Shown: positions 36,515 through 63,456 of the stretch, piece by piece
Layout: every line of letters starts with the position of its first letter
How positions within the stretch are numbered: position 1 is the stretch's first letter
NCBI GenBank assembly: GCA_964511305.1
Contig: CAZEEU010000002.1
Location: 17,608 to 81,607 of the forward strand
Origin: an uncultured Gammaproteobacteria bacterium
Lineage (GTDB): Bacteria > Patescibacteriota > Microgenomatia > Levybacterales > GWA1-39-11
Direction: 5' to 3'
Length of the DNA stretch: 64,000 nucleotides
The notes under the pieces: model-generated
Databases searched by the model: none
What the model saw: the letters and a program-made list of their open reading frames with translations, nothing else
What the model was told of the DNA's origin: nothing
Made by a program: the position numbers and the translations under genes

Positions 36515-36634
36515 TACGGGTGACACGTCGAAGGGGCTCCATCGAGAAAATTTCACAAGCGATCAATAAAAAATAGACAGGTAGAGCGGGTGGATATTTT
36601 TGAAAATGGGGATTTAGACGTGACAGGACCCGTA
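36515..36634. repeat. ~120-bp intergenic element bounded by terminal inverted repeats (MITE-like or structured RNA), copy 1
   Basis: TACGGGTGACACGTC...GACGTGACAGGACCCGTA. The ends are reverse complements (ACGGGT/ACCCGT and CACGTC/GACGTG). A second copy at 43848..43965 is ~90% identical in both arms. Confidence 0.6.
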
Positions 36635-36639
36635 TCCCC

Positions 36640-43847: not shown

Positions 43848-43965
43848 ACGGGTGACACGTCGAAGGGGCTCCATCGAGAAAATTTCACAAGCGAACAATG
43901 TTACTAAATTAGTAGAGTGGGTGAATATTTTCGAAAATGGGGATTTAGACGTGGCAGGACCCGTA
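43848..43965. repeat. ~120-bp TIR-bounded intergenic element, copy 2
   Basis: The first 47 nt are identical to copy 1 (ACGGGTGACACGTCGAAGGGGCTCCATCGAGAAAATTTCACAAGCGA). The last 53 nt differ at 4 positions. The central ~20 nt is divergent. Confidence 0.6.
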
Positions 43966-43969
43966 ACAC

Positions 43970-44587
43970 CTAATACTCGCTTCTTCCTTCAAGTGCTCGA
44001 GTGAGGGTTACTTCGTCAGCATATTCAATATCTGCACCGACTGGAAGTCCTCTACCAATTCTAGTTATTTTAAGCTCGGGACTTTGGAACTTTAATTGCT
44101 TAACCAGATACATTGCCGTCGCTTCCCCTTCCATTGTAGGATTTGTCGCAATAATAATCTCCTCAATCTCCTGACCGCTGTCCGCTGTTTCCCGTAATCT
44201 TTTCATCAATTGCGGGATATAAATATCATCGGGTCCAATTGAATTGAGAGGATCAATTACTCCATGAAGTACATGATACACCCCGTTAAATTTGTCAGAT
44301 TTTTCAAATGCAATTACGTCTAACGCGTCCTCAACCAAACAAATTGTTGAAATATCACGTTGAGGATCAGAACACACGTCACATATATCAGTAGTGCCGA
44401 TATTAAAACAGATCGTACACATCTTTGTATTTTTCTTAAGATTTGTGAGAGAGGCTGCAAAATCATCAAGATCACTTTGTGGTACATGTAATAAATAGAA
44501 GCCAAGGCGCTGCGCCGACTTAGGACCAATACCTGGTAGTCGTTCAAAACCTTCAATAACCTGTTCTAACGCTCTGGGAATTTTCAT
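43970..44587 (-). CDS. recR: recombination protein RecR
   Basis: HhH N-terminus, C4 zinc finger CTICFNIGTTDICDVC, Toprim domain. Confidence 0.9.
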   Translation of the reverse strand: MKIPRALEQVIEGFERLPGIGPKSAQRLGFYLLHVPQSDLDDFAASLTNLKKNTKMCTICFNIGTTDICDVCSDPQRDISTICLVEDALDVIAFEKSDKFNGVYHVLHGVIDPLNSIGPDDIYIPQLMKRLRETADSGQEIEEIIIATNPTMEGEATAMYLVKQLKFQSPELKITRIGRGLPVGADIEYADEVTLTRALEGRSEY

Positions 44588-48234: not shown

Positions 48235-48615
48235 TCAGATTCTTGTAATATTTTTTGAACTTTTTAATAAGCCATTTATGATCTTATGAACCTCAATGGA
48301 CTTAGCATCAAGTTCCTGAAATACTTCTGAATTCATCAATCCTACGTCATGAGATATTTGTAATTGGCTTTGGAGCTCAGTTACAGAACCAAGTGAAACT
48401 GAATAGAACTGAGACTTATCCTTATAAGTTTTTCTGCTAAAACCTTCTGCTATGTTTGAGACTATAGAGACGACACACCTTCGCATTTGACTTGTTAACC
48501 CAAACTGTTCGATTGTGGGGAAATTTCTTGTAACCTCATAGATTCTAACGGCTAGAACGTGAGATTTTTTCCAAGCAAACAAATCTTCAAACGACTTAAT
48601 TTTTAAATTTTCCAT
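48235..48615 (-). CDS. four-helix-bundle protein (23S rRNA intervening-sequence protein family)
   Basis: F.AWKKSH.LA..IY..T..FP..E.FGLTSQMRR...SI..NIAEG pattern of PF05635/TIGR02436. Confidence 0.75.
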   Translation of the reverse strand: MENLKIKSFEDLFAWKKSHVLAVRIYEVTRNFPTIEQFGLTSQMRRCVVSIVSNIAEGFSRKTYKDKSQFYSVSLGSVTELQSQLQISHDVGLMNSEVFQELDAKSIEVHKIINGLLKSSKNITRI

Positions 48616-48716: not shown

Positions 48717-49619
48717 ATGGCTAAGAATAAGCGTCGTGGCGGTGGATATGGTTTTACAGTTAGTCTTACCGGTCCCGGTACGATTTTTACCATTGGTTTT
48801 ATCACTGTCGCAATCGGCATGGGACTACTTCTTGCACGTGGGGTTGCCCCAAAAAATATGTACTCTGACCCTGGCCCTACTGGAGACCTTGAAGTTATCC
48901 CAGAACCCGCCGATCCGGAGCAAAAAGGTCTTCAACTTAAGACGCTTAAATTCAAAGAATGCGCAAGCACACTTACCATTGATCTACTTGTAGATAAATC
49001 TGATTCCATGAATCGACAAACTAGCTCTGGAGTTGCCAAAATTGCTAGACTTAGGGAAGCGATAAGAGAGCTTATAAGCAATGCGGGAGATGATTCAATA
49101 ATCGGAATCCAATCTTTCACAACTGGCGATATCACAAATGATGTTCCTATTGCCTATTACAAAGACAATAAGTCTACTATCCAGGCAAAAATTACTGCAA
49201 TTGGTGGAAGATCTTCAACTCCTACTTATGAAGCGCTTACGTTTTCCTACAATCATCTAAAAGAGTCTATTCCGAAATTCCCTGCTGATAGGAAGTTCAC
49301 TTTCATATTTATCTCCGATGGTGGTCCATGCCCCGGTTTTGCCTGTCCCGGCAATGCAGGAGCTGATCAAGACCCAAGAATATACAGCCCCAATCCAGCA
49401 GATCAGATCAAAGGATTAGGAGTCGAGGTTTATAGCCTTGGAATTTTCGCCCCAGATGAACGCCAATATGTTTTTCAGATGGAAACCTTGCTAAAAAGCA
49501 TAGCAAGCAAACCAGAAAACTATTTTGCTGCAGAATCAGCAGATGATGTCAAAAGACTTCTTACAACAATTACAAGCAGGCTTTGCACTGGAGGCCCAAC
49601 GCCAACACCGAAGATCTAA
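48717..49619 (+). CDS. membrane-anchored von Willebrand factor A (VWA) domain protein
   Basis: N-terminal TM, MIDAS motif DLLVDKSDSM, VWA fold, C-terminal Cys pair and PTPTP tail. Confidence 0.7.
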   Translation: MAKNKRRGGGYGFTVSLTGPGTIFTIGFITVAIGMGLLLARGVAPKNMYSDPGPTGDLEVIPEPADPEQKGLQLKTLKFKECASTLTIDLLVDKSDSMNRQTSSGVAKIARLREAIRELISNAGDDSIIGIQSFTTGDITNDVPIAYYKDNKSTIQAKITAIGGRSSTPTYEALTFSYNHLKESIPKFPADRKFTFIFISDGGPCPGFACPGNAGADQDPRIYSPNPADQIKGLGVEVYSLGIFAPDERQYVFQMETLLKSIASKPENYFAAESADDVKRLLTTITSRLCTGGPTPTPKI

Positions 49620-49676
49620 CATGAATAAAGAATGTAGAATAAAGAATGTAGAATTAAGAATTAAGAATTAAGCAAT

Positions 49677-50279
49677 ATGTTTTTATTTAAGAAAATCATT
49701 AAAAATGACCCCAATACATTATTCTCATCCCTTAATTCTTCACGGGGTCAGTCTTCTATATATATAGTGATAATTATAATGGTCATAATTTTTGCCGTAA
49801 TGTTTGTAGGTGGCGTAGAATCTCTATCATCCGGCAATGAGGCTTCCCCCGTCAGTATAACGCCATCCGCAGTAGCCGACTCAGGTTCAGCTTCCCCCTC
49901 CGCTGGCTCTGCCTCTCCTACCGCATCAACTTCTCCAACAGCGACTACCGCCCCGGCAACCTGGACTCTTGATGTTATACCTGGTGCGTGTGAAGGATTA
50001 ACTAAGGCTAAGTTCAAAAAGTTTCAGGTAGCCATTAATGGAAACTCCAAGGGCTACATTGCTGTTTCTCAACTAAAGGGAAGCTCTTATGAAGTTTATG
50101 GAACTAGTGAATTCTCACCTCCTCTACAGAATTATACGATGTCTCTACTATCTGACCTTCAATTCGATACAAAACCATGGAAAATAACTATATTTTCAGG
50201 TGGAACAAAAAATGGAGAAAATTGGGTGGGAGGATCAACACAAAAAATATATGACGGCCAACCAACGGGATGCAACTAG
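49677..50279 (+). CDS. membrane-anchored/secreted protein with Ser/Pro/Thr/Ala linker, hypothetical
   Basis: TM helix, SPSAGSASPTASTSPTATTAPA linker, ~110-aa C-terminal domain. Confidence 0.45.
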   Translation: MFLFKKIIKNDPNTLFSSLNSSRGQSSIYIVIIIMVIIFAVMFVGGVESLSSGNEASPVSITPSAVADSGSASPSAGSASPTASTSPTATTAPATWTLDVIPGACEGLTKAKFKKFQVAINGNSKGYIAVSQLKGSSYEVYGTSEFSPPLQNYTMSLLSDLQFDTKPWKITIFSGGTKNGENWVGGSTQKIYDGQPTGCN

Positions 50280-50323
50280 TGACTTGACATGATATATATA
50301 ATTGGTGCAAACTCAAAGTTAGC

Positions 50324-52015
50324 ATGAAATTATTAACAAAAATTAAAAAATTGCTGTTTTTCACCAGCATTTTAATCTTTGCATTATCTGGTCTGAGTTT
50401 TGTAGTATCCCCTAGACCAATAATTCCTGTTGCTCAAGCGGCGTGCCTAATTCCACCTCCAGTGTGCGTCCTTAATTTTTGCGTTGATTCTCCGTTGTGT
50501 GCTCTTGACACGGGTGATCTGAAAGATGCTGGTAAAGTTGCACTTTCACTTGCCGGAAAGGGATTCGGAGAAATTGATGATGTTCTTGCAAAAGTCGCTT
50601 CGCACGGCGGTGACGCTTGTTCAGTTGTTGTTAAACTAGCATCTGAACTTTCACCTGTTGATTTTGATAAGTTGGTTAAAAAATATGGGTGTGATAATAT
50701 TCCAGGTGGTGGTGGCGGTAGTAGTAGCGGTGGTGGCCAAGATGGATTTACCGGGTGTGAAACACCTATTATGACTGAGCGCGGTAGAGACTTCTGCGAA
50801 AGCTTCAGTAGCCATCAATGCTTTTGGTACTCAGGCTATTCCAGCGAATCTCCTAGTTGTAGAACAAATAGTGAAAATATGGATCCCAATCAATTGTGCC
50901 GAGATGGTGGGCATTGCTATATTGGACAGACTTGTCAGCCAGGCAATTATTGTTCATCTACTCCAGAGAGTCCATCAACCAGCCCAGCACCGACCAGTGG
51001 TGGTGGCTCGAGTGGAGGTACAGACACATGCACAGAGGTAGACAGAACAAAAGGTTTTGAGTGGAAATGTATGGATGGCTGCTCCGGGGGGTTCGATGAT
51101 ACCAAGAAGACGAATACTACACCGTTTCACCAATGCACTGCGGGACTAACCTGCTGCGTCAAAAAGACTGTGGCGATTGGCTCTGGCACAGGGACCGGTA
51201 CTGGAAGCACAACTCCTGCTCCAACACCAGCAACGCCAACTGAAATTGGATATTGCGGAGACTCTGTTCCAACATTAGGCACTTTGAAGCCAGTCAATGG
51301 GGCAACATGCGCAACCACTTCAACTGGTAATTTAAGATGGATAAAAAGGAGCACTGATTCATCAGGTTATGATAAATACTGTGATCGTCTAACCGGCCAA
51401 CAACAAGTATACTTCTACGAATGCGCTTCTGGCACGAGTGGTGGTGGATCAACAACACCAACTCCAACTACGACAGCTTCCCCTACCCCAACAACCTTTG
51501 TACCTATTTCTCAAGGTGGTGTGTGCAATCCCGTGCAAGGCCCATGGCAATGTCAGTCACCAAATGTATGTCTTACTGTCCCAGGTGAGGGTAGATGCTG
51601 CCCCGCAGGTACTCAATGGATAAATAATCAGTGCGTAACCCCCACTTCTACTCCAGCACCTACAACAACCCAGACACCTACTAACCCTACACCAATTTCA
51701 ACAGGAAGTACATGCAACGACTATATTCCAGCATCAAATATCCACCAAGTATGTAGAACTGGTGTAAATTCATGTATCGGCACCGAGGTTCAAAATACAG
51801 ATGGAAATAAAGCCTGTTCTGATTTCTACCAAAATACATCAACTTGCTGTCAATTACCTCCAAGCGCGGGACCAGCTGGAGGTTCATGTAATCTACCAGG
51901 AAGAACATGCAATCCTAGCTCAAATACTTCAACAGGAACAAATATTGCATGCACTGGATGCGGAGGATACTGCGTAGGATCAGGCACAACAGGATCCTGC
52001 CAAAATCCCTATTAA
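50324..52015 (+). CDS. large secreted Cys-rich modular protein (Gly/Ser/Thr linkers; 'YCGDS' module)
   Basis: Signal/TM N-terminus, more than 40 Cys in repeated modules separated by GGGSS/TGTGTG/PT linkers. The module IGYCGDSVPTLG recurs in the 56946 protein. Confidence 0.5.
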   Translation: MKLLTKIKKLLFFTSILIFALSGLSFVVSPRPIIPVAQAACLIPPPVCVLNFCVDSPLCALDTGDLKDAGKVALSLAGKGFGEIDDVLAKVASHGGDACSVVVKLASELSPVDFDKLVKKYGCDNIPGGGGGSSSGGGQDGFTGCETPIMTERGRDFCESFSSHQCFWYSGYSSESPSCRTNSENMDPNQLCRDGGHCYIGQTCQPGNYCSSTPESPSTSPAPTSGGGSSGGTDTCTEVDRTKGFEWKCMDGCSGGFDDTKKTNTTPFHQCTAGLTCCVKKTVAIGSGTGTGTGSTTPAPTPATPTEIGYCGDSVPTLGTLKPVNGATCATTSTGNLRWIKRSTDSSGYDKYCDRLTGQQQVYFYECASGTSGGGSTTPTPTTTASPTPTTFVPISQGGVCNPVQGPWQCQSPNVCLTVPGEGRCCPAGTQWINNQCVTPTSTPAPTTTQTPTNPTPISTGSTCNDYIPASNIHQVCRTGVNSCIGTEVQNTDGNKACSDFYQNTSTCCQLPPSAGPAGGSCNLPGRTCNPSSNTSTGTNIACTGCGGYCVGSGTTGSCQNPY

Positions 52016-52023
52016 GATTAAAC

Positions 52024-52668
52024 ATGGAAGAACAACTGCCCACAATACAACAGAGCCCAGAACAACCAAAAAAATCTGGAAATAAAAAGCTTCTCCTTTC
52101 TCTTGGGGGGATTGTTTTAATTTTAGCTATTATTCTTGTTACTTTCTTTGCACTCAAATCAACTTCAATAAAAGAAGAAAAGATAGCACCAAGCTCTGAA
52201 AGCCTTACAAATCCACTAAATATACAAGCTCTGCTAGGTTTTTCTACATTTAACTTGACGGCGGTTGATAAAAGATCCGAAACCGTTGACGTGACACTAG
52301 GAACAACAACTACGGCTGGTATTTCAGGTGGAACTATTGTTATCACCTATGACCCCTTTATGACAAATGACCTAAAGGTAAAACCAATAATTGGATCTAC
52401 CTCTCTTCTTCCAAACGCTATTTTCTCCGAGGTCAAATATAATCCCAACAATATAGTTATCACATTTTCTCTTCCCGAAGGATCTAATCCAGTTACGGGA
52501 TCGGGGAGAATTGCAGCTCTTACCTTTACACCTGTAGCTTACAATAAAACGGATAGATCTACTATATCTTTTGATCTAAAGCGCTCAGAGCTCTATACAA
52601 TAGAAAACGGACAGAAAAAAATATTAAGAGCTTCCCGAGCTGATCTTGATATAAAAATTCAGCCATAA
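52024..52668 (+). CDS. membrane-anchored cohesin-like domain protein
   Basis: TM anchor then a ~150-aa domain: TVDVTLGTTTTAGISGGTIVITYDPFMTNDLKV...GSGRIAALTFTPVAYNKTDRSTISF, matching the cohesin pattern (aG.q..l.YDp.vL ... G..a.itF). Start at the internal ATG 52024. Confidence 0.5.
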   Translation: MEEQLPTIQQSPEQPKKSGNKKLLLSLGGIVLILAIILVTFFALKSTSIKEEKIAPSSESLTNPLNIQALLGFSTFNLTAVDKRSETVDVTLGTTTTAGISGGTIVITYDPFMTNDLKVKPIIGSTSLLPNAIFSEVKYNPNNIVITFSLPEGSNPVTGSGRIAALTFTPVAYNKTDRSTISFDLKRSELYTIENGQKKILRASRADLDIKIQP

Positions 52669-52714
52669 CCTATCCCAAAGTCTATTTCCTCGAATTTATG
52701 GCATACTTATAGAT

Positions 52715-53698
52715 ATGAAGAGTCAAGGATTTATTAATATCGTCATTCCCATCCTTATTCTTGTAACCGCTTTTGCCTTTATGCTTACAAGTGGCAAGAT
52801 GTTCAATATCTCAACCACTAATCCAAATGAAAAATACGAAAGTCCAGTCACTTCCGGAGACTCACAGAAAAAAAATCTTCAATTAAAAAAACTCACTTTT
52901 AAGCCAAAGCCCACTCCCGTTGGGGACGCGTGCAATCATGATATGTCAAAAAAGGTTGACCCAAATGTATGCACCAATTGCATTGCGTGGCTTGTCTACT
53001 GTAAAGATAACGCATGTGTTGATGTTGATACCACTAAATCGAAAATGCCAGGAGACAAAACAACCGTATGCCCAGAGTTTGAAAATTCGGGGTGGTGCAG
53101 AACTCTTGCCATGGAGGGAGACGGATGGTACTGCATAGGCAAGCCAGTAATATACCTCTACCCCACAGTCCCCACCCTTGTTAACGTCAAAATCAGAACA
53201 GAAGGCGCTGTTGTTGTAAGCGATCCCCAAATAGAAAAAGAGAATGGATGGACAAATGTCATGGCTCACCCAAATGGAATACTTTTCTACAACGATCAAC
53301 CATTCCGTGAATTGTTCTACGAGTCGGAGGCGCAAAATGTGAGTCAGCCGAAGGCCGGATTTGTTTTTAAAAAAGAAAATCTTAAAAAGGAATTAACTGA
53401 CTTCATAGAAAAATTAGGTTTAACACGTGAGGATGAAAAGGATGAATTCCTTGAGTGGTGGCTTCCCCGCTTGGAGGCATTTGAGTCTCCATATTGGTTT
53501 GTTTCAATTCTAGAAAAAGATGAAAAAAGACGTATTGATGAAGTGACAATATCTCCCAAGCCCGATACATTTATCGAGTTTATCGCGTATTTCAAGCCAC
53601 TTGAAAATGCTGAAGAAGTTGAAAAATTGATTCTTCCTCCTACTCCACAACGAAAAGGCTTTACAGCCGTCGAATGGGGAGGGGTTATTGGTAAATAA
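52715..53698 (+). CDS. membrane-anchored/secreted protein, hypothetical (shares LQLKxLxFK motif with the VWA protein)
   Basis: TM helix, then KNLQLKKLTFK (compare KGLQLKTLKFK in the 48717 protein), then a Cys-rich region and a ~200-aa domain. Confidence 0.45.
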   Translation: MKSQGFINIVIPILILVTAFAFMLTSGKMFNISTTNPNEKYESPVTSGDSQKKNLQLKKLTFKPKPTPVGDACNHDMSKKVDPNVCTNCIAWLVYCKDNACVDVDTTKSKMPGDKTTVCPEFENSGWCRTLAMEGDGWYCIGKPVIYLYPTVPTLVNVKIRTEGAVVVSDPQIEKENGWTNVMAHPNGILFYNDQPFRELFYESEAQNVSQPKAGFVFKKENLKKELTDFIEKLGLTREDEKDEFLEWWLPRLEAFESPYWFVSILEKDEKRRIDEVTISPKPDTFIEFIAYFKPLENAEEVEKLILPPTPQRKGFTAVEWGGVIGK

Positions 53699-53710
53699 GC
53701 GAAGCTTGCC

Positions 53711-53727
53711 CTTTTGGCAAAGGGTGA
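53711..53727. terminator. hairpin CCCTTTtggcAAAGGG immediately after stop of 52715..53698
   Basis: Inverted repeat read from the sequence, within a GC-rich ~100-bp segment between convergent genes. No downstream T-tract, hence low confidence. Confidence 0.3.
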
Positions 53728-53801
53728 CACCGACCCTCCTCTTCTGGGCGCTGCCATGCAATGGCGAGTACTCTTGGGGTGGAGGGGTTATTGGAAGATA
53801 G

Positions 53802-54392
53802 CTACTGAAGACTAGCAAGCATTGCATCATACTGAGCCTCAATCACTGGATCTTTATCCCCTACATATGACAGCTGTAATCTTATAATTGAATACCCTTT
53901 TTGAAATAAAGCAACTTTCTCGTGAAGACGCAGAACTGAATTGCCACCTTTATAATAATAGCCAGGCATATCGCTACGCGCTATCTCTTTACTTTCGTAT
54001 TTGGCACTCTGGTAGGGTTTTGATAAGTCCTCAATTGTGTTATTTTGACGGGAAAAAACAACCACGCTTATCTCTTTTGTTGACGGGCTTACAAAGCGTA
54101 TGTATTCGGAAATGCCTTCGTTTGGTATTACACTTACAACCTGAAAGCTTTCAGGGTAAGCAATTGAAAAAATTTCAGAATTGTATCTTACCGACGTGAT
54201 ACTACCTTCCTGCGTTTTGACAATGCCTGGACTGGCATTTGTAGGTGCTGGAGTTATATTGGATTTGCCGGCCACACTAACGTTGTCAGCATTTCGCAAG
54301 GACACTATTGCAAATGTCGTAAGTCCTAGACATCCCACCACTATAATAACCGCCATTTTTTTCCATCCAAGCTTCTCTACTAGTTGTTCCAT
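53802..54392 (-). CDS. membrane-anchored protein, hypothetical
   Basis: N-terminal TM then a ~160-aa extracytoplasmic domain. No motif. Confidence 0.45.
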   Translation of the reverse strand: MEQLVEKLGWKKMAVIIVVGCLGLTTFAIVSLRNADNVSVAGKSNITPAPTNASPGIVKTQEGSITSVRYNSEIFSIAYPESFQVVSVIPNEGISEYIRFVSPSTKEISVVVFSRQNNTIEDLSKPYQSAKYESKEIARSDMPGYYYKGGNSVLRLHEKVALFQKGYSIIRLQLSYVGDKDPVIEAQYDAMLASLQ

Positions 54393-54461
54393 ATATTTAA
54401 ATATTATCAGATTTTCTTAATTCTTGATTCTTAATTCTTAATTCTATATACTCGTGACAAG

Positions 54462-55778
54462 ATGCTAAGCCAACAAGATCCAGAAGTTTATGCCATACTC
54501 CAAAAAGAAGACAAGAGACAGCGGGATACTCTAACGCTTATACCTTCAGAAAATTACGCCTCCCTTGAAGTGAGATCCACCCTCGCGTCAGTATTTACAA
54601 ATAAATATTCAGAAGGATATTCAAAGAAAAGATATTATCAGGGAAATGCCAATGCTGATGACATAGAAATGCTAGCAATGGAGCGAGCAAAAAAATTATT
54701 TGGCGTTCCTTTTGTAAATGTCCAACCTTATTCAGGAAGTCCGGCAAATACGGCAGTCTATTTTGCACTACTCGAACCTCTAAAAAGCAAAATTATGGGA
54801 CTTGCTCTGTCATCTGGAGGACATCTAACTCATGGGTCACCTGTTAGCTTTTCTGGCAAATATTTTAAAACTGTCAGCTTTCCTGTAACTCGCGACGGAA
54901 TCCTTGATATGGATGAAATAGAGAAATTGGCCATAAAAGAAAAACCGCAGATCATTGTATGTGGATTCACTGCATACCCACGAATTATTGATTTTGAAAG
55001 ATTTGGCAAGATTGCTGATAAGTGTGGGGCTTATTTACTTGCTGATGTGTCCCATATTGCTGGTCTTATTGCTGGAGGCGCTCATCCTTCACCCGCAAAT
55101 CACGCCCATATCATTATGACTACAACTCACAAATCTCTTCGCGGACCCCGAGGAGCAATGCTTATGGTAACTGAAAAAGGTATTCAAAAAGATCCAGATC
55201 TTCCAGAAAAAATAAATAAGGCGGTTTTTCCAGGCCTCCAAGGAGGACCTCACGATAACCAGACAGCAGCAATCGCTGTTGCGTTAAAAGAAGCCATGAG
55301 CCCGGAATTTAAAAAATATGCTCATCAAATAGTTAAAAACGCGAAAGTTCTTGCTGATGTTCTACTAGCAAATGGCTTTCGTCTTACAACAGGTGGCACG
55401 GAAAATCATTTAATTGTTATAGACACCATGTCAAAAGGGGTTAATGGAGCACTCGCCTCTTACGCTCTGGAGCTTGGGGGGATAATTACCAATAAAAATA
55501 CTATTCCGTATGACACACTTCCCCCTTTCTATCCGTCAGGTGTAAGAATTGGAACTCCTGGAAGTGCCACTCGGGGCATGAAGGAAAAAGAAATGAAGAT
55601 TCTAGGACAATGGATTGCTGATATTATCAAGGAATGCGAAGGAAATGTATTACCGGAGATAAAAGAAGAACGCGGACCTTTCTTTAAGAATTTTAAGAAA
55701 GAAATAGCTGAAAATAAAAAAATCAAAAAAATTGCTCTTGAAGTTAAAAGAACACTCAAAGAATTCCCGCTTCCCTAA
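54462..55778 (+). CDS. glyA: serine hydroxymethyltransferase
   Basis: SHMT signature ...SGGHLTHGSPVSFSGKYF... and PLP-lysine region TTTHKSLRGPRG. Confidence 0.95.
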   Translation: MLSQQDPEVYAILQKEDKRQRDTLTLIPSENYASLEVRSTLASVFTNKYSEGYSKKRYYQGNANADDIEMLAMERAKKLFGVPFVNVQPYSGSPANTAVYFALLEPLKSKIMGLALSSGGHLTHGSPVSFSGKYFKTVSFPVTRDGILDMDEIEKLAIKEKPQIIVCGFTAYPRIIDFERFGKIADKCGAYLLADVSHIAGLIAGGAHPSPANHAHIIMTTTHKSLRGPRGAMLMVTEKGIQKDPDLPEKINKAVFPGLQGGPHDNQTAAIAVALKEAMSPEFKKYAHQIVKNAKVLADVLLANGFRLTTGGTENHLIVIDTMSKGVNGALASYALELGGIITNKNTIPYDTLPPFYPSGVRIGTPGSATRGMKEKEMKILGQWIADIIKECEGNVLPEIKEERGPFFKNFKKEIAENKKIKKIALEVKRTLKEFPLP

Positions 55779-55846
55779 AAAACGCGCTTCTTATTGACAC
55801 TCAAGTCTATCTTCACTACTATGTAAATAGTTGGCCTTATATAGAT

Positions 55847-56959
55847 ATGGTAAAAATTATTCCTCGAATTCTCTTTCTCATTGTAAGCCTTTTTTTTATA
55901 ATCCCTATGAATTTACAAATAAATGCATCAAACGAAAATTCTAAAATAGACACAAATAAAACTTTGGCTTTTATCCCAGGTACAGACAAACTACCAGATA
56001 GCTATATATGGACACAGAATTCATCACCTTGCTCAGCAGGTGAAGCTTATTGTTATCAAGACACAACAGGAAATTACCAACATGGAATCGAAAATACTCA
56101 AAACAATGATTTACCCCCGGCAGATCAATCAGTTAACGATAATCCAAATGGGAACACCAGTCGCAAATCTGGATATGGAGGGGATTGTACAATATTTGGC
56201 GGTTGCGTGAATGAAGGGGTATGCGAACTCACAGACATTGGAGGCATTAACGGTCAATGTGTTGCGCCCAGAACAGCACAGCCAACTAGTTGCAATAGTC
56301 AGAGTGGCCGGGCAAATGGATGCAACTGCGAACAATCAAATAACACTCAATGCGCAAGTCAATATTGTGGTGGACCATATCGAGTAGAAGATGTCTATCG
56401 CAGGGGAAGCCCAAAAACTATCGGCACCTGTCAATCGTCAACGGTGTCTGGTCCATCCGTAACACCTGGCCCTTCAAGTCAGCCTCTTGTATGCGGAATT
56501 ATTGGAGATCCTAATGCAGACGGGATGATTACTGACGCAGATGCCTTATTTGTAGGAAGAATGATGGCTGGCCTTGAAACATCAACTCCCGACAGGATAG
56601 CAAGAGCAGATGTTAATAATGACGCTATTGTAGACAGCAAAGATCAATTAGAAATAAGAAAATATGTTACAAAATTAATTACAACTTTTCGTGCTTGCAA
56701 TAGTTCTAACCCTCCCCAAGTCTTATGTCCTCCTGAGACGACAAATCCCAATACAACACTCAAGAACAAAGGGGATGCAAATTGCAGCGGTACAATAACA
56801 ATTCAAGACTACAATTTATGGCGGGATGAATTCATTGCTAAAGAAGCCAATACAACCAACAGAACAAAGTACGCTGATTTTAATGGTGGGGATGTTACGA
56901 TTTCTGACTATAATATATGGAGAGATAATTTTATAGCTACAAATAATGGAACAAACTAA
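55847..56959 (+). CDS. secreted Cys-rich protein carrying two tandem dockerin-like modules
   Basis: Signal peptide. Dockerin-type Ca-loop pairs GDPNADGMITDAD / ADVNNDAIVDSKD and GDANCSGTITIQD / ADFNGGDVTISD, each followed by a hydrophobic helix (classic D-x-N-x-D-G-x-I-x-x-x-D repeats). Confidence 0.6.
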   Translation: MVKIIPRILFLIVSLFFIIPMNLQINASNENSKIDTNKTLAFIPGTDKLPDSYIWTQNSSPCSAGEAYCYQDTTGNYQHGIENTQNNDLPPADQSVNDNPNGNTSRKSGYGGDCTIFGGCVNEGVCELTDIGGINGQCVAPRTAQPTSCNSQSGRANGCNCEQSNNTQCASQYCGGPYRVEDVYRRGSPKTIGTCQSSTVSGPSVTPGPSSQPLVCGIIGDPNADGMITDADALFVGRMMAGLETSTPDRIARADVNNDAIVDSKDQLEIRKYVTKLITTFRACNSSNPPQVLCPPETTNPNTTLKNKGDANCSGTITIQDYNLWRDEFIAKEANTTNRTKYADFNGGDVTISDYNIWRDNFIATNNGTN

Positions 56960-59042
56960 CAACCCAATCATCCAGTATATTAAGACTCTAAAAAGAAAAC
57001 AGATTTTTATGGCAATTGGTGGTTTAATTGTAGCTGGTGCTCTTGTCACAACGTTATATCTCGTAAAACAATCCCAGGACTTAAGACAACGGGCTTCTGG
57101 AGAAGAAGTTATACTCTCATATTCCCCTTCTCAAATACAATTAGCACAGCATACAGAAACTGCAATTGAGCTTAAAGCCAGAACCATAGCAGCAAATGTG
57201 AATGTTACAGCAATCCAAACGACTGTAAAGTTTGATCAAGATAAAGTCGAGCTCGTGAGATACGAAGACGGTAACAGATCGGCACTACTAACACCTCTTC
57301 AAACTCCGTCACCAAATAATGCAGCAGGTACCATGAGCGTTACCTTCCTGCGACCAACGGCAGACGCAACTGTTCTTAGTGGAGACATCAATCTTGGTCG
57401 GCTAATATTTAAATCTAAAGGAACTATCGGAGTAACTGACATCACGGCAATTAACTCTTTAGTTACTAAGTCTGGATCCTACACTGACATAACGCCGGGA
57501 GTTGAAGTATCCAGTCTCACTGTTTCGTCAAATACATCTGTTACAGTTACGACAGCACCAAGCGGAACAACCGCCCCCTCTCCTTCTCCAAATACTCAGC
57601 CGACAGGCTCACAGGTATATTGTGGAGATTCTAGTCATGTTGGTTGCACGGTTGGACTTTATTCCTGCTACGTTAACCTAGGCAATAATGTAGGCAAGAC
57701 ATGTACAGATGTGTCTGGCAGTAACGGCACATACAATTGCGTTAAATGCGCATATGTCACTCCATCGCCAACGGTATCCCCTAGCACAACCCCTGTACCA
57801 AGAGTTCCTGAATGTGGAGTTTCAACTATTCCACCTACGATAGGAGCTGCCCCACTCAAAGTAGCTTTACATGGTTCTGGAAAGTCAAATGCACTGGGAG
57901 TAGGAATTGCAGGATATGAATGGGATTTTGATGGAAATGGAACATGGGATTCTCCTGTCCAACTTGATTACATAGAACATATTTATACTGTTAATGGTAC
58001 ATATAGACCTAAATTCAGAATTAAGGGTCAAAATGGTAAATACAGTGAGACTTGCACTTACGGATATGAGGTGCTGGTTGGACCCATCTCAACAAATCCC
58101 AACTATGACGTGACCATTATTCCGCCAGCCAATCTTCAACCATCAGGCAATATAGATTCTGGAAGCCGAAATATAACATGGACAGCTTCAGCAAAAGCTG
58201 AGGGAGGTTACTATCTGAGAGTTAATGAGGATGGAATAGATACTACAACTTGGAACGCACCTAGTTGTGATTCGAATACAAATTTAAGAACCGGCGATAT
58301 TTGCGAAACAATTAACACAACCAGCTACTCTTATACATTTAAGCCTGGAAAGAATTACTTTGTATGGGTTCACAGTCGAGCAACTAATGGTAAATACGGT
58401 GAGCCAGTTGCCGCCACTGTAGTCACGCGTGCTGGTTCCGAGCCAACAACTTCACCCACATTAACGCCTACGGCAACTATATTTCCTACTGCAACTCTTG
58501 CACCAAATGATACAGCTATAAATGTGAACATTGCACTTCCTGGTATAGGCACTGGGGCTGAAAATCTGGGACTTAATGCAACCCCAATACACCCACAAAG
58601 AACTGCAACGCTTAAGCTATACGACAATACGAGTGCAAATATTAAAACAGTCGATGCTATCATGACCTACGTGCCACAGTCATCATCCTACTTTGGCCAA
58701 TTCCCATTGGGCACCACATTCCCAACAGGAGTGTATACTGCAAAAATTAAGGTCAACAATGCTCTCTATCGAAGCCTTGTAGGATCAATGCAAATTACAG
58801 GCGGCGTAGCAAATGCGTCTACTATATGGACAGGAACTCCAAGGAATCTTATTAGCGGAGATCTAAATAATGATAATACTCTTGGTATTATTGACTGGAC
58901 CTATATGATAGCTTGCGTAAAGAATGAGGCAGCTTGCACATCCGCAATAAGAGGTCTTGCAGACCTTAACGATAATGGAAGTGTTGACGAGATAGATGTT
59001 CAGATATTACAACGCGGGTTTGCATTACGTGACGGAGACTAA
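56946..59042 (+). CDS. membrane-anchored multidomain surface protein: cohesin-like + Cys-rich 'YCGDS' module + PKD + FN3-like + C-terminal dockerin
   Basis: TM anchor. Cohesin-like segment (TTVKFDQDKVELV...GRLIFKSKGTIGVTDI). PKD motif (GYEWDFDGNGTWDS...HIYTVNGTYRPKFRIKGQNG). Dockerin loops GDLNNDNTLGIID / ADLNDNGSVDEID at the C-terminus. Confidence 0.6.
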   Translation: MEQTNNPIIQYIKTLKRKQIFMAIGGLIVAGALVTTLYLVKQSQDLRQRASGEEVILSYSPSQIQLAQHTETAIELKARTIAANVNVTAIQTTVKFDQDKVELVRYEDGNRSALLTPLQTPSPNNAAGTMSVTFLRPTADATVLSGDINLGRLIFKSKGTIGVTDITAINSLVTKSGSYTDITPGVEVSSLTVSSNTSVTVTTAPSGTTAPSPSPNTQPTGSQVYCGDSSHVGCTVGLYSCYVNLGNNVGKTCTDVSGSNGTYNCVKCAYVTPSPTVSPSTTPVPRVPECGVSTIPPTIGAAPLKVALHGSGKSNALGVGIAGYEWDFDGNGTWDSPVQLDYIEHIYTVNGTYRPKFRIKGQNGKYSETCTYGYEVLVGPISTNPNYDVTIIPPANLQPSGNIDSGSRNITWTASAKAEGGYYLRVNEDGIDTTTWNAPSCDSNTNLRTGDICETINTTSYSYTFKPGKNYFVWVHSRATNGKYGEPVAATVVTRAGSEPTTSPTLTPTATIFPTATLAPNDTAINVNIALPGIGTGAENLGLNATPIHPQRTATLKLYDNTSANIKTVDAIMTYVPQSSSYFGQFPLGTTFPTGVYTAKIKVNNALYRSLVGSMQITGGVANASTIWTGTPRNLISGDLNNDNTLGIIDWTYMIACVKNEAACTSAIRGLADLNDNGSVDEIDVQILQRGFALRDGD

Positions 59043-59124
59043 TATAGAATTAAGGACAATGAATAAAGCGTAAAGAGAAAAGTTGACAGTAAAAGAAAAT
59101 TGCTTAATACTTAATTCTTGATAC

Positions 59125-59745
59125 TTGATTCGAATAATACTGCCTAACATGCCTAAAAAAACGACAATACTAATAGTGATTCTTGCTCTAGTTACAGGAG
59201 TTCTTATTTTCCTTGCGGTACGATCGGATCAAGGACAAAATTTACTCTCGACTGATCAGGGAGAAGCTACCCCTACCCAAGTGCAACCATTTGCAAGCTT
59301 GTCATTTGAGAACCCACTTCTTGATGCTTCAACCGGCCCGACAACACAATCGGTAAATATTGTAATTGATACTCTGGGTAAACCTGCCGCAGGAGCACAA
59401 ATAGAGCTTTCATATAATCCTGCTGTGCTAACGAATGTGAGCGTTAAGACTCCCCAGACGTCTTTCTTTGGAGCAAACCCGAGTGTGCTTATAAATACTG
59501 TTGATCCTACTCAGGGAAGAATCTCTTACGCTGTAGGGATATCTGCATCAGATGCAGAGAAGTCTGGAAATGGTACCTTAGCAACCATAACTTTCACAGT
59601 AAATAGACTCGCTGGTATTGCAACTACTAATCTAACCTTTCTTCCTAAATCTGCTGTAACAACACTGAGTGCTCAGGGGTCAATTCTCAACACCTCAACT
59701 CCCCTTGAGATACGCCTTACACCTCTTCCAACATCTGCCAATTAA
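59125..59745 (+). CDS. membrane-anchored cohesin-domain protein
   Basis: TM anchor then TQSVNIVIDTLGKPAAGAQIELSYNPAVLTNVSV...GNGTLATITFTVNRLAGIATTNLTF, the best cohesin-like match in the window. Confidence 0.6.
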   Translation: MIRIILPNMPKKTTILIVILALVTGVLIFLAVRSDQGQNLLSTDQGEATPTQVQPFASLSFENPLLDASTGPTTQSVNIVIDTLGKPAAGAQIELSYNPAVLTNVSVKTPQTSFFGANPSVLINTVDPTQGRISYAVGISASDAEKSGNGTLATITFTVNRLAGIATTNLTFLPKSAVTTLSAQGSILNTSTPLEIRLTPLPTSAN

Positions 59746-59748
59746 TGC

Positions 59749-60099
59749 ATGTTTATTGATAAAATTTGGAAAAAGAATCAATATGTCCTTCTTGTAGCGG
59801 CAACGGTACTTTTGGGAGCCTGCCTAGCAATACTTATTCTCCTGCGATTTAGTTCCAATAGGCAACAAGAGCATCAACAAAATACAATAACCCAACAGTC
59901 GGCCTCTCAAAATTGCACTGCTCAAAAAATAGCGTGTAACCCTCAATTCATAGACAATAAGAAGATAGCATGTGGATTACTTAAAAATAAGATAATTGAT
60001 GAACTTTTGAAACGAAATGAGTCACCATGTAAGAGTATTAATAGAGAAATAGTTGAAAATCAAATGAATGAAGCATGTCAAATAGGTTGCCCCAAGTAA
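59749..60099 (+). CDS. small membrane-anchored Cys-containing protein, hypothetical
   Basis: TM helix then a ~80-aa segment with 6 Cys. Confidence 0.35.
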   Translation: MFIDKIWKKNQYVLLVAATVLLGACLAILILLRFSSNRQQEHQQNTITQQSASQNCTAQKIACNPQFIDNKKIACGLLKNKIIDELLKRNESPCKSINREIVENQMNEACQIGCPK

Positions 60100-60147
60100 C
60101 TTCTGTAGTTGATTTAAGTGATAGCATTCTGAAATAATGTAACTAAT

Positions 60148-60510
60148 ATGGCAGACATACCACAAAATTCATTTCAAGGACCTTTGGCTCCAAAATATGG
60201 ATTAAATGACAATTTCAGAAATCCGATTCCGGCTGGACCCAAAGTTAATATTCCAAAAAACAGAAATTACGGGCGACTTATACCGGTGGGCGCAGTTGCA
60301 CTTGCGCTTCTTATTCTTCCTTTAACTATCCAGCAGCTTGGCCAGCAACAAGATAATAGACAGCAAGCATCTCAACCAACTCCTACAATATCGCTACCTG
60401 CCCAGGTGACTTCCCCGACATCAACCCCGACACCTATAGGCCTTACTCCAACACCAACCTCTACAGTAGAATTAGTACCACCACTTCAAGCAACTTCTTC
60501 CGGGAATTAA
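60148..60510 (+). CDS. small membrane-anchored Pro/Thr-rich protein, hypothetical
   Basis: Central TM helix then a PT-rich tail (SPTSTPTPIGLTPTPTSTV). Confidence 0.35.
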   Translation: MADIPQNSFQGPLAPKYGLNDNFRNPIPAGPKVNIPKNRNYGRLIPVGAVALALLILPLTIQQLGQQQDNRQQASQPTPTISLPAQVTSPTSTPTPIGLTPTPTSTVELVPPLQATSSGN

Positions 60511-61550: not shown

Positions 61551-62606
61551 GTGAACAAAAAAATAATCTTAATTGCCTTAATAGTGCTTGTTCTTATAGG
61601 TGTTGTCGTCACAACTCTTCTTATTAGACAAAACCAGGACAATAGACAGCGAGCTGATGAAGGAACTCCTACGACAACACAAGGTCCTACTCTCGACACA
61701 GAAGAATGGAATTTCGTTAGGATTTTGAACGAACATAGGCAAGAAATAGGACACAATCCACTTAAAGTGTCCCAAAAATTAACACTAGCAGCTAGATGGA
61801 TGTCAACAGACATGGCAGCAAGAAATATATTGCCCGCTGATCATTCAGATTCGCTTGGCAGGCAATTCCAAAACAGAATAAGATCATTTGGCTACAACGC
61901 CGTACCTATTGGAGAAAATATAGCAAAAGTTGGTGCAACCGGTCAAAACGCATTTGATGCTTGGCTCGCCTCAACAATGGGGCATAAAGAAGAAATGGAA
62001 AGCCCTGCAAGAAGTGTTATTGGTATTGCTAGAGTTCAAAGTGGAAATAGCTGGTATTGGACTGCAGACTTCGGGCCATCGTTAGACTCCGAAATTACTC
62101 CAACGACAACTCCATCTATTACTGATAGCCCTACCCCATCAACAACAGTATCTCCTACATTATCAGTTACTACAACCCAAGAGCCCACAATAACTGCCTC
62201 ACCAACAACTGTAATAGTAACCCCTTCTAATACGGTAACTCCTACGTTGACCGCAACTTCGACACCCACGTCTACAGCAACGCCAACACCAACTTCGACT
62301 CCTACCGCAACTCCTACCCCAACGCCTAGTCCAACAAAAGTACCAACAAGCACACCAACTCCTACATCCAAACCAACTGCTACTCCCACAGCTACGTCCA
62401 TTCCAACTGTGCCTCCAACGGCAACTCCAACAATCCTACCAACTGTAATTGCTCATATATCACCAACCCCTACACAATTGCCGCCTATTGCAACGAGCAC
62501 TCCAGTACCATCCATAGCACAACCAGGAGGACTCGTACCTACTCTGGGTATATTTGGTGGAATTTTGGTCGTGATCGTTGCTGGAATATTCTTGTTAGCA
62601 CTTTAG
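61551..62606 (+). CDS. membrane-anchored CAP (SCP/PR-1-like, YkwD-type) domain protein with long Pro/Thr linker and C-terminal TM
   Basis: N-terminal TM. CAP-domain motifs (LNEHR...G..PL, HK..M, SWYWTADFG). ~130-aa (PT/ST)n linker. C-terminal hydrophobic helix. Confidence 0.7.
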   Translation: MNKKIILIALIVLVLIGVVVTTLLIRQNQDNRQRADEGTPTTTQGPTLDTEEWNFVRILNEHRQEIGHNPLKVSQKLTLAARWMSTDMAARNILPADHSDSLGRQFQNRIRSFGYNAVPIGENIAKVGATGQNAFDAWLASTMGHKEEMESPARSVIGIARVQSGNSWYWTADFGPSLDSEITPTTTPSITDSPTPSTTVSPTLSVTTTQEPTITASPTTVIVTPSNTVTPTLTATSTPTSTATPTPTSTPTATPTPTPSPTKVPTSTPTPTSKPTATPTATSIPTVPPTATPTILPTVIAHISPTPTQLPPIATSTPVPSIAQPGGLVPTLGIFGGILVVIVAGIFLLAL

Positions 62607-62670: not shown

Positions 62671-62937
62671 GTCCGCTACTTGTCTTGATTGTATTTACTC
62701 TCTTGAGGTCCAACCTGAAACTTAGCGAAGCAAAGGATCAGGCACATTACTTATCTTGATTATATCGACTTTCCTGTGGTCCTGCCTGAAACTTACACGC
62801 AGTGAAGTTTTAGGCGTTATTTATCTTGGTTATACTTACTTTCTTGAGGACCTGCCTGGAACTTACACGCAGTGAAGTTTTAGGCGTTATTTATCTTGGT
62901 TATACTTACTTTCTTGAGGACCTGCCTGGAACTTATA
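62671..62937. repeat. ~70-bp tandem repeat, ~3.8 copies with increasing divergence upstream. The last copy encodes the C-terminus of dcd
   Basis: 62811-62880 and 62881-62935 are identical (TAGGCGTTATTTATCTTGGTTATACTTACTTTCTTGAGGACCTGCCTGGAACTTA...). Two further degenerate copies lie upstream. Confidence 0.8.
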
Positions 62938-63456
62938 TTTTGCGTCTTTCTTTTTTGTATATGGGGTCTCTGCAGGACTTGATAGTTGCTCAAAAGCCAT
63001 AGCGCAAATTCTCATTCCGGGGTACAAAGCAACAGCCATACGCCCAAGATTACCAAGCTCCAAAACGCAATTACCGTCCCATCCTGCGTCAAAAATACTT
63101 GCAGTTGAATGTACAACAATTCCAAGTCGCCCCAATGAAGATCTTCCCTCTAACCTTCCCAGAAGATCATCTGGAATTCTTACCTTTTCCATGGTAACGG
63201 CAAGCACAAAATCCCCTGGCTGCATAATAAATGGTGAACCTTTCTTAATCTTTATTTCAGTTGTAATTTCGTTTGTATAATCTTTTTTCGTAGGGTCAAG
63301 GAAGGCATTCCTGCTATGGTCAAAAACTCTAAATTTATCTCCAAGACGAAGGTCTAAAGAGCAGGTACCCAACTGTGTTTTGAAATCTGGGGCCGGCAAT
63401 ATACCAATCTTTTTCTTCTTAATATAATCTTTGATGTCGCGATCGGATAAAACCAT
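62887..63456 (-). CDS. dcd: dCTP deaminase
   Basis: Dcd pattern MVLSDRDIKDYI...LDLRLG... The last ~17 aa (KYKFQAGPQESKYNQDK) are encoded inside the tandem repeat. Confidence 0.85.
   Translation of the reverse strand: MVLSDRDIKDYIKKKKIGILPAPDFKTQLGTCSLDLRLGDKFRVFDHSRNAFLDPTKKDYTNEITTEIKIKKGSPFIMQPGDFVLAVTMEKVRIPDDLLGRLEGRSSLGRLGIVVHSTASIFDAGWDGNCVLELGNLGRMAVALYPGMRICAMAFEQLSSPAETPYTKKKDAKYKFQAGPQESKYNQDK

Follow-up and report, generated by a model that had tools for sequence, protein, structure and literature searches.

A putative non-cellulosomal cohesin-dockerin surface-display system in a Levyibacteriota genome

How candidate-phyla-radiation bacteria (CPR, Patescibacteria) construct their surface and fasten themselves to hosts or substrates is poorly understood, and the role of cohesin and dockerin modules of non-cellulolytic bacteria and archaea has been largely open since these non-cellulosomal modules were catalogued in 2009 (Peer et al., as cited in PMC4081043). 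Both questions are raised by a 64-kb stretch of contig CAZEEU010000002.1 (in the following, the window), which harbours at 48.7-60.5 kb a cluster of genes running mostly in one direction; their products are exported or anchored in the membrane, and several possess cohesin or dockerin modules (Table 1). Which function do these modules have in such a cell? The window was analyzed together with related loci labelled L001-L004, L006, L008, L011, L081-L084 and L086-L089. The cluster probably represents a non-cellulosomal cohesin-dockerin surface-display system of a Levybacteria cell, with two neighbouring genes at its centre: one for a 698-aa protein ending in an X-module/dockerin dyad (X-Doc), the other for a small membrane-anchored protein with a single cohesin (Coh3).

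Three cohesin modules (Coh1, Coh2 and Coh3), each on an N-terminal transmembrane (TM) anchor, had been proposed in a first-pass annotation made from the letters of the sequence. All three exceed the gathering score of Pfam Cohesin (PF00963, 24.1 bits), their orthologues match as well, and the three proteins possess a hydrophobic N-terminal segment according to hydropathy. Each protein carries one cohesin, never more, and local hidden Markov models (HMMs) detected cohesins in no further open reading frame (ORF) of the window. The AlphaFold2 (AF2) model of Coh3 (41-sequence alignment; predicted local distance difference test, pLDDT, 91.4) consists of a long N-terminal helix followed by nine main strands, corresponding to the nine-stranded beta-sandwich (jelly-roll) of cohesins. 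Its 50 top matches in the PDB are all cohesins. Type I cohesin CaCohA2 (6kgc_A) ranks first with E=1e-9 and a TM-score to target of 0.75-0.78; type II and type III cohesins follow with lower yet significant scores, and Archaeoglobus fulgidus and C. perfringens contribute cohesins that are non-cellulosomal. With Pfam scores above threshold and exclusively cohesins among these matches, the objection foreseen in the first-pass annotation, i.e. lack of HMM matches and a generic immunoglobulin (Ig)-like fold, does not apply to Coh3.

The Coh3 family comprises 98 homologous clusters of ~200 aa, none of which is functionally named by any source. The TM residues of the family are nearly invariant and modelled as a confident helix, which suggests a retained anchor and is atypical of a cleaved signal peptide. 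As proteins of the family start with MPKKTT, the ATG at 59149 is the likely true start of the gene. Among the polar residues, Q92, E94, R132, S134 and K175 are invariant or nearly so; by inferred strand assignment they would be located on or beside strands 3, 6 and 8, the dockerin-binding face of type I cohesins. Coh1, with orthologues in L001-L004 and L081, matches the Coh3-family profile with 95.8% probability (hhalign, E=6.7e-9), whereas Coh2 as a single sequence failed in this comparison (0.4%). A profile of eight orthologous Coh2 modules matches type I cohesins of the PDB (4ums, E=4.6e-5; also 1g1k and 2vn5), and Coh2 still resembles cohesins in a low-confidence model of the full-length protein. 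Since the Coh2- and Coh3-family profiles are homologous (94.7% probability) but share 12% identity, two very divergent cohesin classes are present, namely Coh1 and Coh3 versus Coh2.

Of the dockerins, initially counted as at least three, two are solid by the gathering score of Pfam Dockerin_1 (PF00404, 22.9 bits): DocA of a 370-aa protein and the C-terminal module of the 698-aa protein (25.6 bits in the full-length protein, 32.1 bits when scanned alone). The third, DocB, is sub-threshold. Ca loops DLNNDNTLGIID and DLNDNGSVDEID of the C-terminal module are 34 residues apart and have D/N at positions 1, 3 and 5 and D at position 12; helices are located at 648-658, 666-672 and 682-693 in the low-confidence model. 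A regular expression for the paired Ca loops retrieved no other ORF of at least 100 aa from the window, in agreement with the local HMMs, and this confinement to proteins of the cluster argues against chance.

The residues in front of this dockerin extend it to an X-Doc. As a single sequence, aa 582-695 match the X-Doc of Clostridium thermocellum CipA (2b59_B) with E=6e-4, and a nine-sequence profile of the last ~175 residues does so with E=2e-9, the 2b59_B alignment covering the end of the X-module and the entire dockerin. The profile also matches 3kcp/4fl4, 5g5d_B and the A. cellulolyticus X-Doc structures 4wi0_B and 4u3s_B, with plain type I dockerins ranking behind. The full-length AF2 model of the 698-aa protein (8-sequence alignment) is poor (pLDDT 46.6), and no conclusion on an interface was drawn from it; its X-module region (523-617) is all-beta with pLDDT 70-82, and the best Foldseek match is again a CipA X-Doc (5g5d_B, TM-score to target 0.62), followed by type I cohesins. 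The C-terminus of the protein is therefore an X-module plus dockerin dyad, the nearest solved relatives of which are the type II X-Doc of scaffoldins. Between Coh2 and X-Doc, the PKD domain expected from the first reading matches that of ColH (4jgu_A, E=3.9e-5), and the fn3 match remained below its gathering score (16.9 versus 25 bits). The 698-aa protein has no exact database record; a 98%-identical cluster exists. The dyad, its pairing with a cohesin gene, the two cohesin classes and a QDxRQRA motif following the TM segment extend the first-pass annotation.

Clustering of the modules, as originally noted, is confirmed, and the neighbourhood is syntenic in five species-level relatives, one 88%-identical strain and more distant Levybacteria. 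The order runs from the genes for a VWA protein, a TM protein with proline/threonine (PT)-rich part, a Cys-rich protein, Coh1, the 52715 family and a PsbP-like protein via glyA to those for a Cys-rich secreted protein, the Coh2...X-Doc protein, Coh3, a further TM-PT protein, a CAP protein and dcd. Within it, a gene ending in X-Doc is located directly upstream of a Coh3-type gene (~200-aa TM-cohesin). This arrangement recurs in 12 gene pairs spread over 11 non-redundant loci, namely the window, L081 (L082 being identical), L001-L004, L083, L084 (twice in tandem), L086, L087 and L089. The reverse test started from four distant members of the Coh3 family (37-45% identity), three of which had an X-Doc gene upstream (L086, L087 and L089); as these loci were fetched via distant cohesins, the pairing could have failed to appear. 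Coh2 is missing from the X-Doc proteins of L084 and their pairing with Coh3-type genes is kept, so the conserved partnership is that of X-Doc and Coh3 rather than X-Doc and Coh2. A gene for a single-cohesin surface anchor thus adjoins an X-Doc gene, the arrangement of ScaE and CttA. All near relatives retain the architecture TM-Coh2-spacer-X-Doc.

The X-Doc family is large. A phmmer search with aa 511-698 against 1.84 billion representatives yielded 1,583 clusters with E<=1e-3, of which 781 reach E<=1e-10. Among the 150 best matches, the X-Doc forms the C-terminus in 146, a TM-like segment the start in 138, and Q-x-x-R-x-x-A follows directly after this segment in 98; in 140, the Ca loops have a C-x(5-9)-C pair between them, the usual ending being G-D or G-N, and 48 carry their own N-terminal cohesin, mostly of Coh2 type. 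Pfam analysis of the cargo in 73 sampled members listed 25 families, including Dockerin_1 (52), FlgD_ig (12), Cohesin (10), SdrD_B (7), CBM_4_9 (6), VWA (3) and CarboxypepD_reg (3), next to single members with subtilase, sulfatase, peptidase M64, PG_binding_1 and a beta-helix domain. Glycoside hydrolases (GHs) are not among these 25 families, nor was a GH domain found above threshold on the dockerin proteins seen in the window, L081, L086, L088 and L089. The first-pass annotation had remarked that no GH carries a dockerin here, which is borne out by the GH15-ROK fusion and the GH63-like protein of the window, both devoid of dockerins. In the distant loci, the X-Doc occurs on a VWA plus SdrD_B protein (L088) and the cargo includes a weak HEXXH-type metalloprotease signature; L086 contains a gene with a weak precomputed GH5_mannosidase match and a sub-threshold dockerin match (17.6 bits). 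Overall, X-Doc cargo is mostly of adhesin or binding type (cohesin, VWA, SdrD-B, carbohydrate-binding module, Ig-like).

These features suggest the following mode of display. The X-Doc would plug, in a Ca2+-dependent manner, into the membrane-anchored Coh3-type cohesin encoded next door and would thereby tether the secreted protein non-covalently to the cell that produces it. Coh3 would act as membrane socket for X-Doc proteins, its N-terminal TM helix replacing anchoring by S-layer homology (SLH) domains or sortase; the logic would be that of the CipA X-Doc with SdbA/OlpB in C. thermocellum and especially of the CttA or ScaB X-Doc with ScaE in Ruminococcus flavefaciens. Support for such tethering comes from the nearly invariant TM helix of Coh3 and from its conserved polar residues assigned to strands 3, 6 and 8 or their vicinity. 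Coh2 on the tethered protein could provide a second-tier socket for another class of dockerin, the candidate ligand in this strain being DocA on the Cys-rich protein encoded just upstream with gene overlap. The outcome would be a mini-scaffold with two tiers, made up of proteins that are not enzymes and probably bind ligands or a host (PKD, fn3, VWA, CAP and Cys-rich modules). Host attachment by the displayed proteins is plausible, and the adhesin-like cargo fits it.

DocA and its carrier merit separate description. The 370-aa protein overlaps with the downstream gene by 14 nt, has only two homologues and carries DocA behind a 190-aa Cys-rich domain with no recognisable enzyme. The Ca loops of DocA, DPNADGMITDAD and DVNNDAIVDSKD, are likewise 34 residues apart, with D/N in EF-hand-like manner at positions 1, 3 and 5 and D at position 12. 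The DocA region (aa 194-300) matches type I dockerins of the PDB (2ccl_B and 1ohz_B), with R. bromii Amy16 (9qf9_A, E=5.6e-7) as best sequence match. The second loop of DocB (DFNGGDVTISD) has 11 instead of 12 residues and the DocB orthologue in L081 received no Pfam call; DocB is dockerin-like only and not a confirmed dockerin. In the relative protein P0108 (L081, 9142-10020), DocA (~81 aa) is cleanly absent as an indel, the flanks being 82% identical overall, while the cohesin/X-Doc orthologues (P0002) of the strains differing in DocA share 88% identity. This presence/absence pattern looks like a recent gain or loss of a dockerin module.

Several observations weigh against the proposed display system. 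The only model containing cohesin and dockerin together is the poor one of the 698-aa protein, and it offers no interface prediction. X-Doc proteins start with a TM-like segment of their own; left uncleaved, it would anchor them by itself and make a cohesin tether superfluous. Tethering requires it to be a cleaved leader, which is the main difficulty. The fold of Coh3 is nearest to type I and the X-Doc nearest to type II dyads, so their pairing would be of a type not yet seen. The lack of DocA in the 88%-identical relative marks the Coh2-DocA tier as plastic rather than conserved. In L088, the X-Doc gene is two genes away from the Coh3-type gene, inside a dockerin/cohesin block, and the Coh3-type gene of L008 has no X-Doc neighbour. 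Gene adjacency can, moreover, reflect co-regulation without direct contact.

This last point leads to an explanation without mutual pairing, in which the cohesins serve as Ig-like stalks or ligand binders, the dockerins serve as Ca2+-stabilised EF-hand ends or bind a target other than cohesin, for instance a glycan of the cell wall or a component of the host surface, and adjacency reflects co-regulation of surface proteins. Dockerins accompanied by no or one cohesin occur in many non-cellulolytic microbes (PMC4081043, citing Peer et al. 2009), the N-terminal TM-like segment of X-Doc proteins would agree with it, and unrelated surface proteins (VWA, CAP, Cys-rich) share the cluster. We regard it as unlikely, as the X-Doc/cohesin pair is repeatedly conserved and in L084 even duplicated as a pair, and as the conserved polar residues of Coh3 would lie on the dockerin-binding face. 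Pairing could also proceed from head to tail, with the X-Doc of one molecule inserted into Coh2 of the next and the last X-Doc into Coh3, to form a surface fibril or lattice for attachment. Roughly every third X-Doc protein (48 among the best 150) brings along its own N-terminal cohesin, mostly of Coh2 type, near relatives keep both modules on one protein throughout, and L081 has another cohesin plus dockerin protein nearby. In known scaffoldins, however, the dockerin and the cohesin type of one and the same protein do not bind each other, the 12% identity of Coh2 and Coh3 argues for differing specificities, and the X-Doc proteins of L084 pair with Coh3 genes without any cohesin of their own; such a polymer thus appears quite improbable.

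Cohesin, dockerin and X-Doc are at the same time canonical parts of cellulosomes, and the cluster might be the core of a true minimal cellulosome- or amylosome-like complex, onto the Coh1, Coh2 and Coh3 of which dockerin-bearing GHs encoded elsewhere would dock. In this direction point CBM_4_9 on 6 of the 73 X-Doc members, the weak GH5_mannosidase gene of L086 with its sub-threshold dockerin match, and the resemblance of DocA to the dockerin region of the R. bromii amylase Amy16. Small CPR genomes, however, generally encode few carbohydrate-active enzymes (CAZymes), no scaffoldin with more than one cohesin is encoded here, no above-threshold GH resides on the dockerin proteins of the window and of L081, L086, L088 and L089, the cargo census is free of GHs, and the two GH-like proteins of the window lack dockerins. 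Cluster proteins showed no match to SLH or LPXTG, their anchors being N-terminal TM helices. With neither a multi-cohesin scaffoldin nor a dockerin-bearing CAZyme in the window or related loci, and with no SLH or sortase anchor, the cellulosome was rejected as very improbable. The scaffold other than a cellulosome that had been supposed in the first-pass annotation is supported in part: the tests for a cellulosome turned out negative and the modules are surface-related in a CPR genome, host attachment being hypothetical.

The surface-display system proposed above is embedded among further genes for surface proteins (Table 1), a run interrupted by glyA, which had been named before as the housekeeping gene within the cluster (serine hydroxymethyltransferase, SHMT), and by one opposite-strand gene.

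Table 1. Genes, modules and motif sites of the cohesin-dockerin cluster and its conserved flank in the window
Feature	Position (nt)	Strand	Description	Match or remark
VWA protein	48717..49619	+	TM-anchored VWA/MIDAS (metal ion-dependent adhesion site) protein, 300 aa; first gene of block	VWA 35.2 bits
TM-PT protein	49677..50279	+	200 aa; TM, PT/S-rich linker, small C-terminal domain	
Cys-rich protein	50324..52015	+	Secreted, 563 aa, 42 Cys, PT linkers	Coh1 gene 8 nt downstream
Coh1	52024..52668	+	N-terminal TM (aa 23-41) and one cohesin (~aa 60-211)	Cohesin 25.5 bits
52715 family protein	52715..53698	+	TM, Cys-rich segment and conserved ~190-aa C-terminal domain	
PsbP-like protein	53802..54392	-	TM-anchored	PsbP-like 19.8 bits, below gathering score 23.5; position kept, orthologues in L001, L002, L004
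glyA	54462-55778		SHMT; within cluster	
370-aa protein	55847..56959	+	Secreted Cys-rich protein with two C-terminal modules, DocA and DocB	Dockerin_1 44.9 bits
DocA	56498-56680		aa 218-278; canonical type-I-like dockerin	38.4 bits scanned alone (aa 215-282)
DocB	56762-56944		aa 306-366; DYNxW, dockerin-like	18.0 bits scanned alone (aa 304-366), below threshold
698-aa protein	56946..59042	+	Mini-scaffoldin-like: TM, QDLRQRA, Coh2, Cys/PT linker, PKD, fn3-like, X-module, dockerin	
TM of 698-aa protein			aa 22-40	
QDLRQRA of 698-aa protein	57075-57095		aa 44-50	Leader motif site
Coh2	57096-57539		aa 51-198; N-terminus of 698-aa protein	Cohesin 28.0 bits at aa 83-186
PKD of 698-aa protein			aa 297-369	
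fn3-like of 698-aa protein			aa 393-487	Weak
X-module	58509-58841		aa ~522-632	
C-terminal dockerin	58851-59039		aa 636-698	
Coh3	59125..59745	+	N-terminal TM helix, short PT linker, one cohesin (aa ~56-197)	Cohesin 36.5 bits
Small TM protein	59749..60099	+	116 aa, 7 Cys	3 nt downstream of Coh3
Small TM-PT protein	60148..60510	+	43-aa N-terminal cytoplasmic part, TM, QQQDNRQQA, 45-aa PT-rich tail	Leader motif site 60343-60369
CAP protein	61551..62606	+	CAP/SCP-domain surface protein; N-terminal TM and QNQDNRQRA, long PT-rich stalk, C-terminal TM	CAP 47.8 bits; leader motif site 61629-61655

The VWA/MIDAS protein of the first reading is confirmed by the Pfam match and a D-x-S-x-S MIDAS motif (DKSDS); it has a hydrophobic segment at aa 26-44 and orthologues in L001, L004 and L081. 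The Cys-rich secreted protein and the PT-linker anchored proteins likewise correspond to their initial description. The TM-PT protein following VWA (hydropathy 3.02 at aa 28-46, P/T/S fraction 0.29, orthologues in L001 and L004) reached the threshold of no Pfam family. The 563-aa Cys-rich protein and the 52715..53698 family match neither Pfam nor NCBIfam, and NCBIfam added no names to the cluster proteins in general; members of the latter family are amplified nearby, with two to three paralogues each in L002, L003 and L004 (tblastn, 38-54% identity). A second, weaker gene pair is formed by Cys-rich proteins of 563-709 aa (42-56 Cys) and the Coh1-type gene, with gaps of 2-13 nt in the window, L001, L003, L004 and L081. 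As no dockerin could be detected in the Cys-rich partner, Coh1 may bind something other than a dockerin. Downstream of Coh3, the product of 59749..60099 is not conserved, with no tblastn match in the related loci, whereas that of 60148..60510 is 66-77% identical over aa 1-~95 in L001-L004 and L011; its orthologues adjoin Coh3 directly in the relatives, and 59749-60099 intervenes in the window. The CAP protein, located outside 48717-60510, nevertheless belongs to the conserved neighbourhood (orthologues in L001-L004, L011, L081 and L083). Two further members of the system are encoded in L081 at 19441-22094, 3-6 kb past dcd, where the homologous region is no longer covered by the window on its right side. 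One of them, 679 aa long, combines TM-QDLRQRA with an internal Dockerin_1 module (49 bits) and a C-terminal DYNxW dockerin-like module; the other is a 441-aa cohesin plus dockerin protein. The system is thus larger than the window shows.

Three of the proteins in the window, namely the cohesin plus X-Doc, the TM-PT and the CAP protein, have Q-(D/E)-x-R-Q-(R/Q/K)-A as a common motif immediately behind their N-terminal TM segment. It also occurs in L001-L004, L006, L011, L081, L086, L088 and L089 and is invariant in homologues sharing only 27-35% identity. Among 83 sources it was confined to Levybacteria loci, with 30 of 31 occurrences in post-TM position. The motif does not represent a canonical A-x-A signal-peptidase site, no mention of QDxRQRA strings was found in the literature, and it may constitute an undescribed sorting or processing signal. 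Extending the display system, one may tentatively consider, with more doubt than confidence, a lineage-wide surface-protein sorting and display system of Microgenomates-type CPR: proteins with an N-terminal TM leader plus Q-(D/E)-x-R-(Q/S)-(R/Q/K)-A and a C-terminal, probably disulfide-braced X-Doc tag would be captured by small membrane-anchored cohesins encoded by neighbouring genes, and cohesin-bearing members could stack or daisy-chain and attach the ultrasmall cells to hosts or substrates.

The genome belongs to Levyibacteriota (Microgenomates, CPR), in accordance with the first impression of a CPR-like, AT-rich genome: the GC content of 2-kb windows is mostly 0.35-0.44 (two at 0.48-0.49), and glyA is 78-84% identical to that of the closest metagenome-assembled genomes (MAGs), one of which is labelled Candidatus Levyibacteriota. 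The others are labelled 'uncultured Gammaproteobacteria', evidently a wrong label; identity to named Levybacteria from groundwater is 63-65%. The window contains one tRNA and no rRNA. Gene spacing in the cluster is operon-like, with co-directional genes, one 14-nt overlap and gaps of 3-82 nt. Scans for promoters (42 versus 36.3±5.8) and terminators (15 versus 12.5±3.5) did not exceed shuffles, so that operon structure is deduced from spacing only.

Further observations concern the borders and remainder of the window. A gene of the four-helix-bundle bAvd / 23S-rRNA-IVP family (48235-48615, minus strand) borders the cluster, as in L081, L083 and L084. The diversity-generating retroelement (DGR) prompted by this bAvd-like gene was dropped: the scanned proteins include no reverse transcriptase (RT), and the window has no template/variable repeat pair of at least 40 nt. 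At the other border, directly 3' of dcd (minus strand, 62887-63456), ~4 tandem copies of a 70-nt unit (62676-62956; 92% matches, score 315) are located, the last of which overlaps the stop and C-terminal codons of dcd, i.e. the 3' end of dcd was re-duplicated into the spacer. An intergenic tandem array with 47-nt period is found at 25186-25374, its copy spacing alternating between 32 and 15 nt. A ~140-nt element occurs twice, 7.3 kb apart (36516-36657 and 43848-43988; two parts 98% and 83% identical), and brackets a segment including a high-GC ORF; the pair could be a repeated regulatory or RNA element, or insertion borders. The ORF (41524-43830, plus strand; GC 0.43-0.48 versus roughly 0.38 in most of the window) codes for a 768-aa protein of low complexity that is rich in A/P/T/E and contains internal repeats of 198 and 135 nt, for which neither a TM segment nor a Pfam match was found. 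The GH15-ROK protein (18019-20151, minus strand) is an unusual fusion of an N-terminal GH15-like part and a C-terminal ROK-family sugar kinase/regulator. The 324-aa product of 8718-9692 (minus strand, GC 0.49) is hydrophobic near its N-terminus; a small domain containing Cys and a PT-rich stalk of ~120 aa lead to a C-terminal TM segment with a KKASKS tail behind it, and there is no LPXTG. It is another surface protein, with a different, C-terminal style of anchoring.

The locus turns an old question into a matter of two proteins: X-Doc and Coh3, encoded side by side, should bind each other with Ca2+ if the display system operates as proposed. In that case, more than 1,000 protein clusters so far unnamed would be assigned as cargo displayed on the surface, the displayed adhesin-like repertoire of a genome would be readable from the X-Doc tag, and protein engineering would obtain new orthogonal cohesin-dockerin pairs. 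The wider sorting system, if real, would be the functional equivalent, though a non-covalent one, of anchoring by sortase/LPXTG or SLH for a whole branch of the CPR. The earlier view of the system as largely undescribed needs qualification: non-cellulosomal modules had been catalogued in 2009 (according to PMC4081043) and a dockerin protein is essential in a cultured Saccharibacterium (PMC10633639), while no paper was found on a cohesin-dockerin system in Microgenomates or other CPR, so that 'undescribed' holds only for this lineage and architecture.

The Saccharibacterium case is SEML1_0315 of Southlakia epibionticum, an essential envelope protein with dockerin domain, for which host-associated glycans have been proposed as targets, be it in adhesion or in degradation (PMC10633639). 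It resembles the present proteins as a dockerin-bearing envelope protein of the CPR, although Saccharibacteria are a different CPR class and the respective paper makes no mention of a cohesin. Dockerins outside cellulose degradation are also known from the R. bromii amylosome (Amy16, 9qf9), where they reside on amylases, in contrast to DocA on its 190-aa Cys-rich domain. The non-cellulosomal modules of A. fulgidus (2xdh) and C. perfringens (2jh2, 2w1n and 2vo8), which are among the fold matches, likewise stem from cellulosome-free organisms and non-cellulolytic proteins, but are mostly isolated modules or parts of enzyme-enzyme (toxin) complexes, whereas a syntenic, lineage-wide pair of X-Doc and TM-cohesin with shared leader motif is found here. 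The CipA X-Doc of C. thermocellum with SdbA/OlpB/Orf2p (2b59, 3kcp, 4fl4 and 5g5d) provides the best profile and fold match of the C-terminal 170 residues, and the two-tier logic is shared in that the scaffold's own cohesin class differs from the anchoring cohesin. CipA, however, carries nine type I cohesins and a CBM3, the 698-aa protein one cohesin and PKD and fn3-like spacers; the anchoring proteins of C. thermocellum use SLH domains, unlike the TM-anchored Coh3; and the C-x(5-9)-C pair between the Ca loops with the usual G-D or G-N ending sets the present X-Doc family apart from CipA.

The nearest working analogue appears to be cttA-scaE of R. flavefaciens. In the sca cluster of this bacterium (scaC-scaA-scaB-cttA-scaE), ScaE, a cell-wall anchor with one cohesin, holds CttA and ScaB by their X-Doc (PMC4081043, PMC4266597). 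Differences are evident: R. flavefaciens belongs to the Firmicutes rather than the CPR, ScaE is a type III cohesin bound covalently to peptidoglycan via a C-terminal sortase signal, whereas Coh3 is nearest to type I, lacks a sortase motif and carries its conserved TM helix at the N-terminus, and the R. flavefaciens system carries about a hundred CAZymes compared to no enzyme cargo found here. In both cases, however, the X-Doc gene is located directly upstream of the anchor-cohesin gene (PMC4081043, PMC4266597), and bimodular proteins with cohesin and dockerin exist. The structure of the ScaE cohesin (2zf9) also appears in the list of matches to Coh3. CttA itself is a non-enzymatic adhesin anchored through its X-Doc, and anchoring of X-Doc proteins to the surface by a single-cohesin protein is what is proposed here for Levybacteria.

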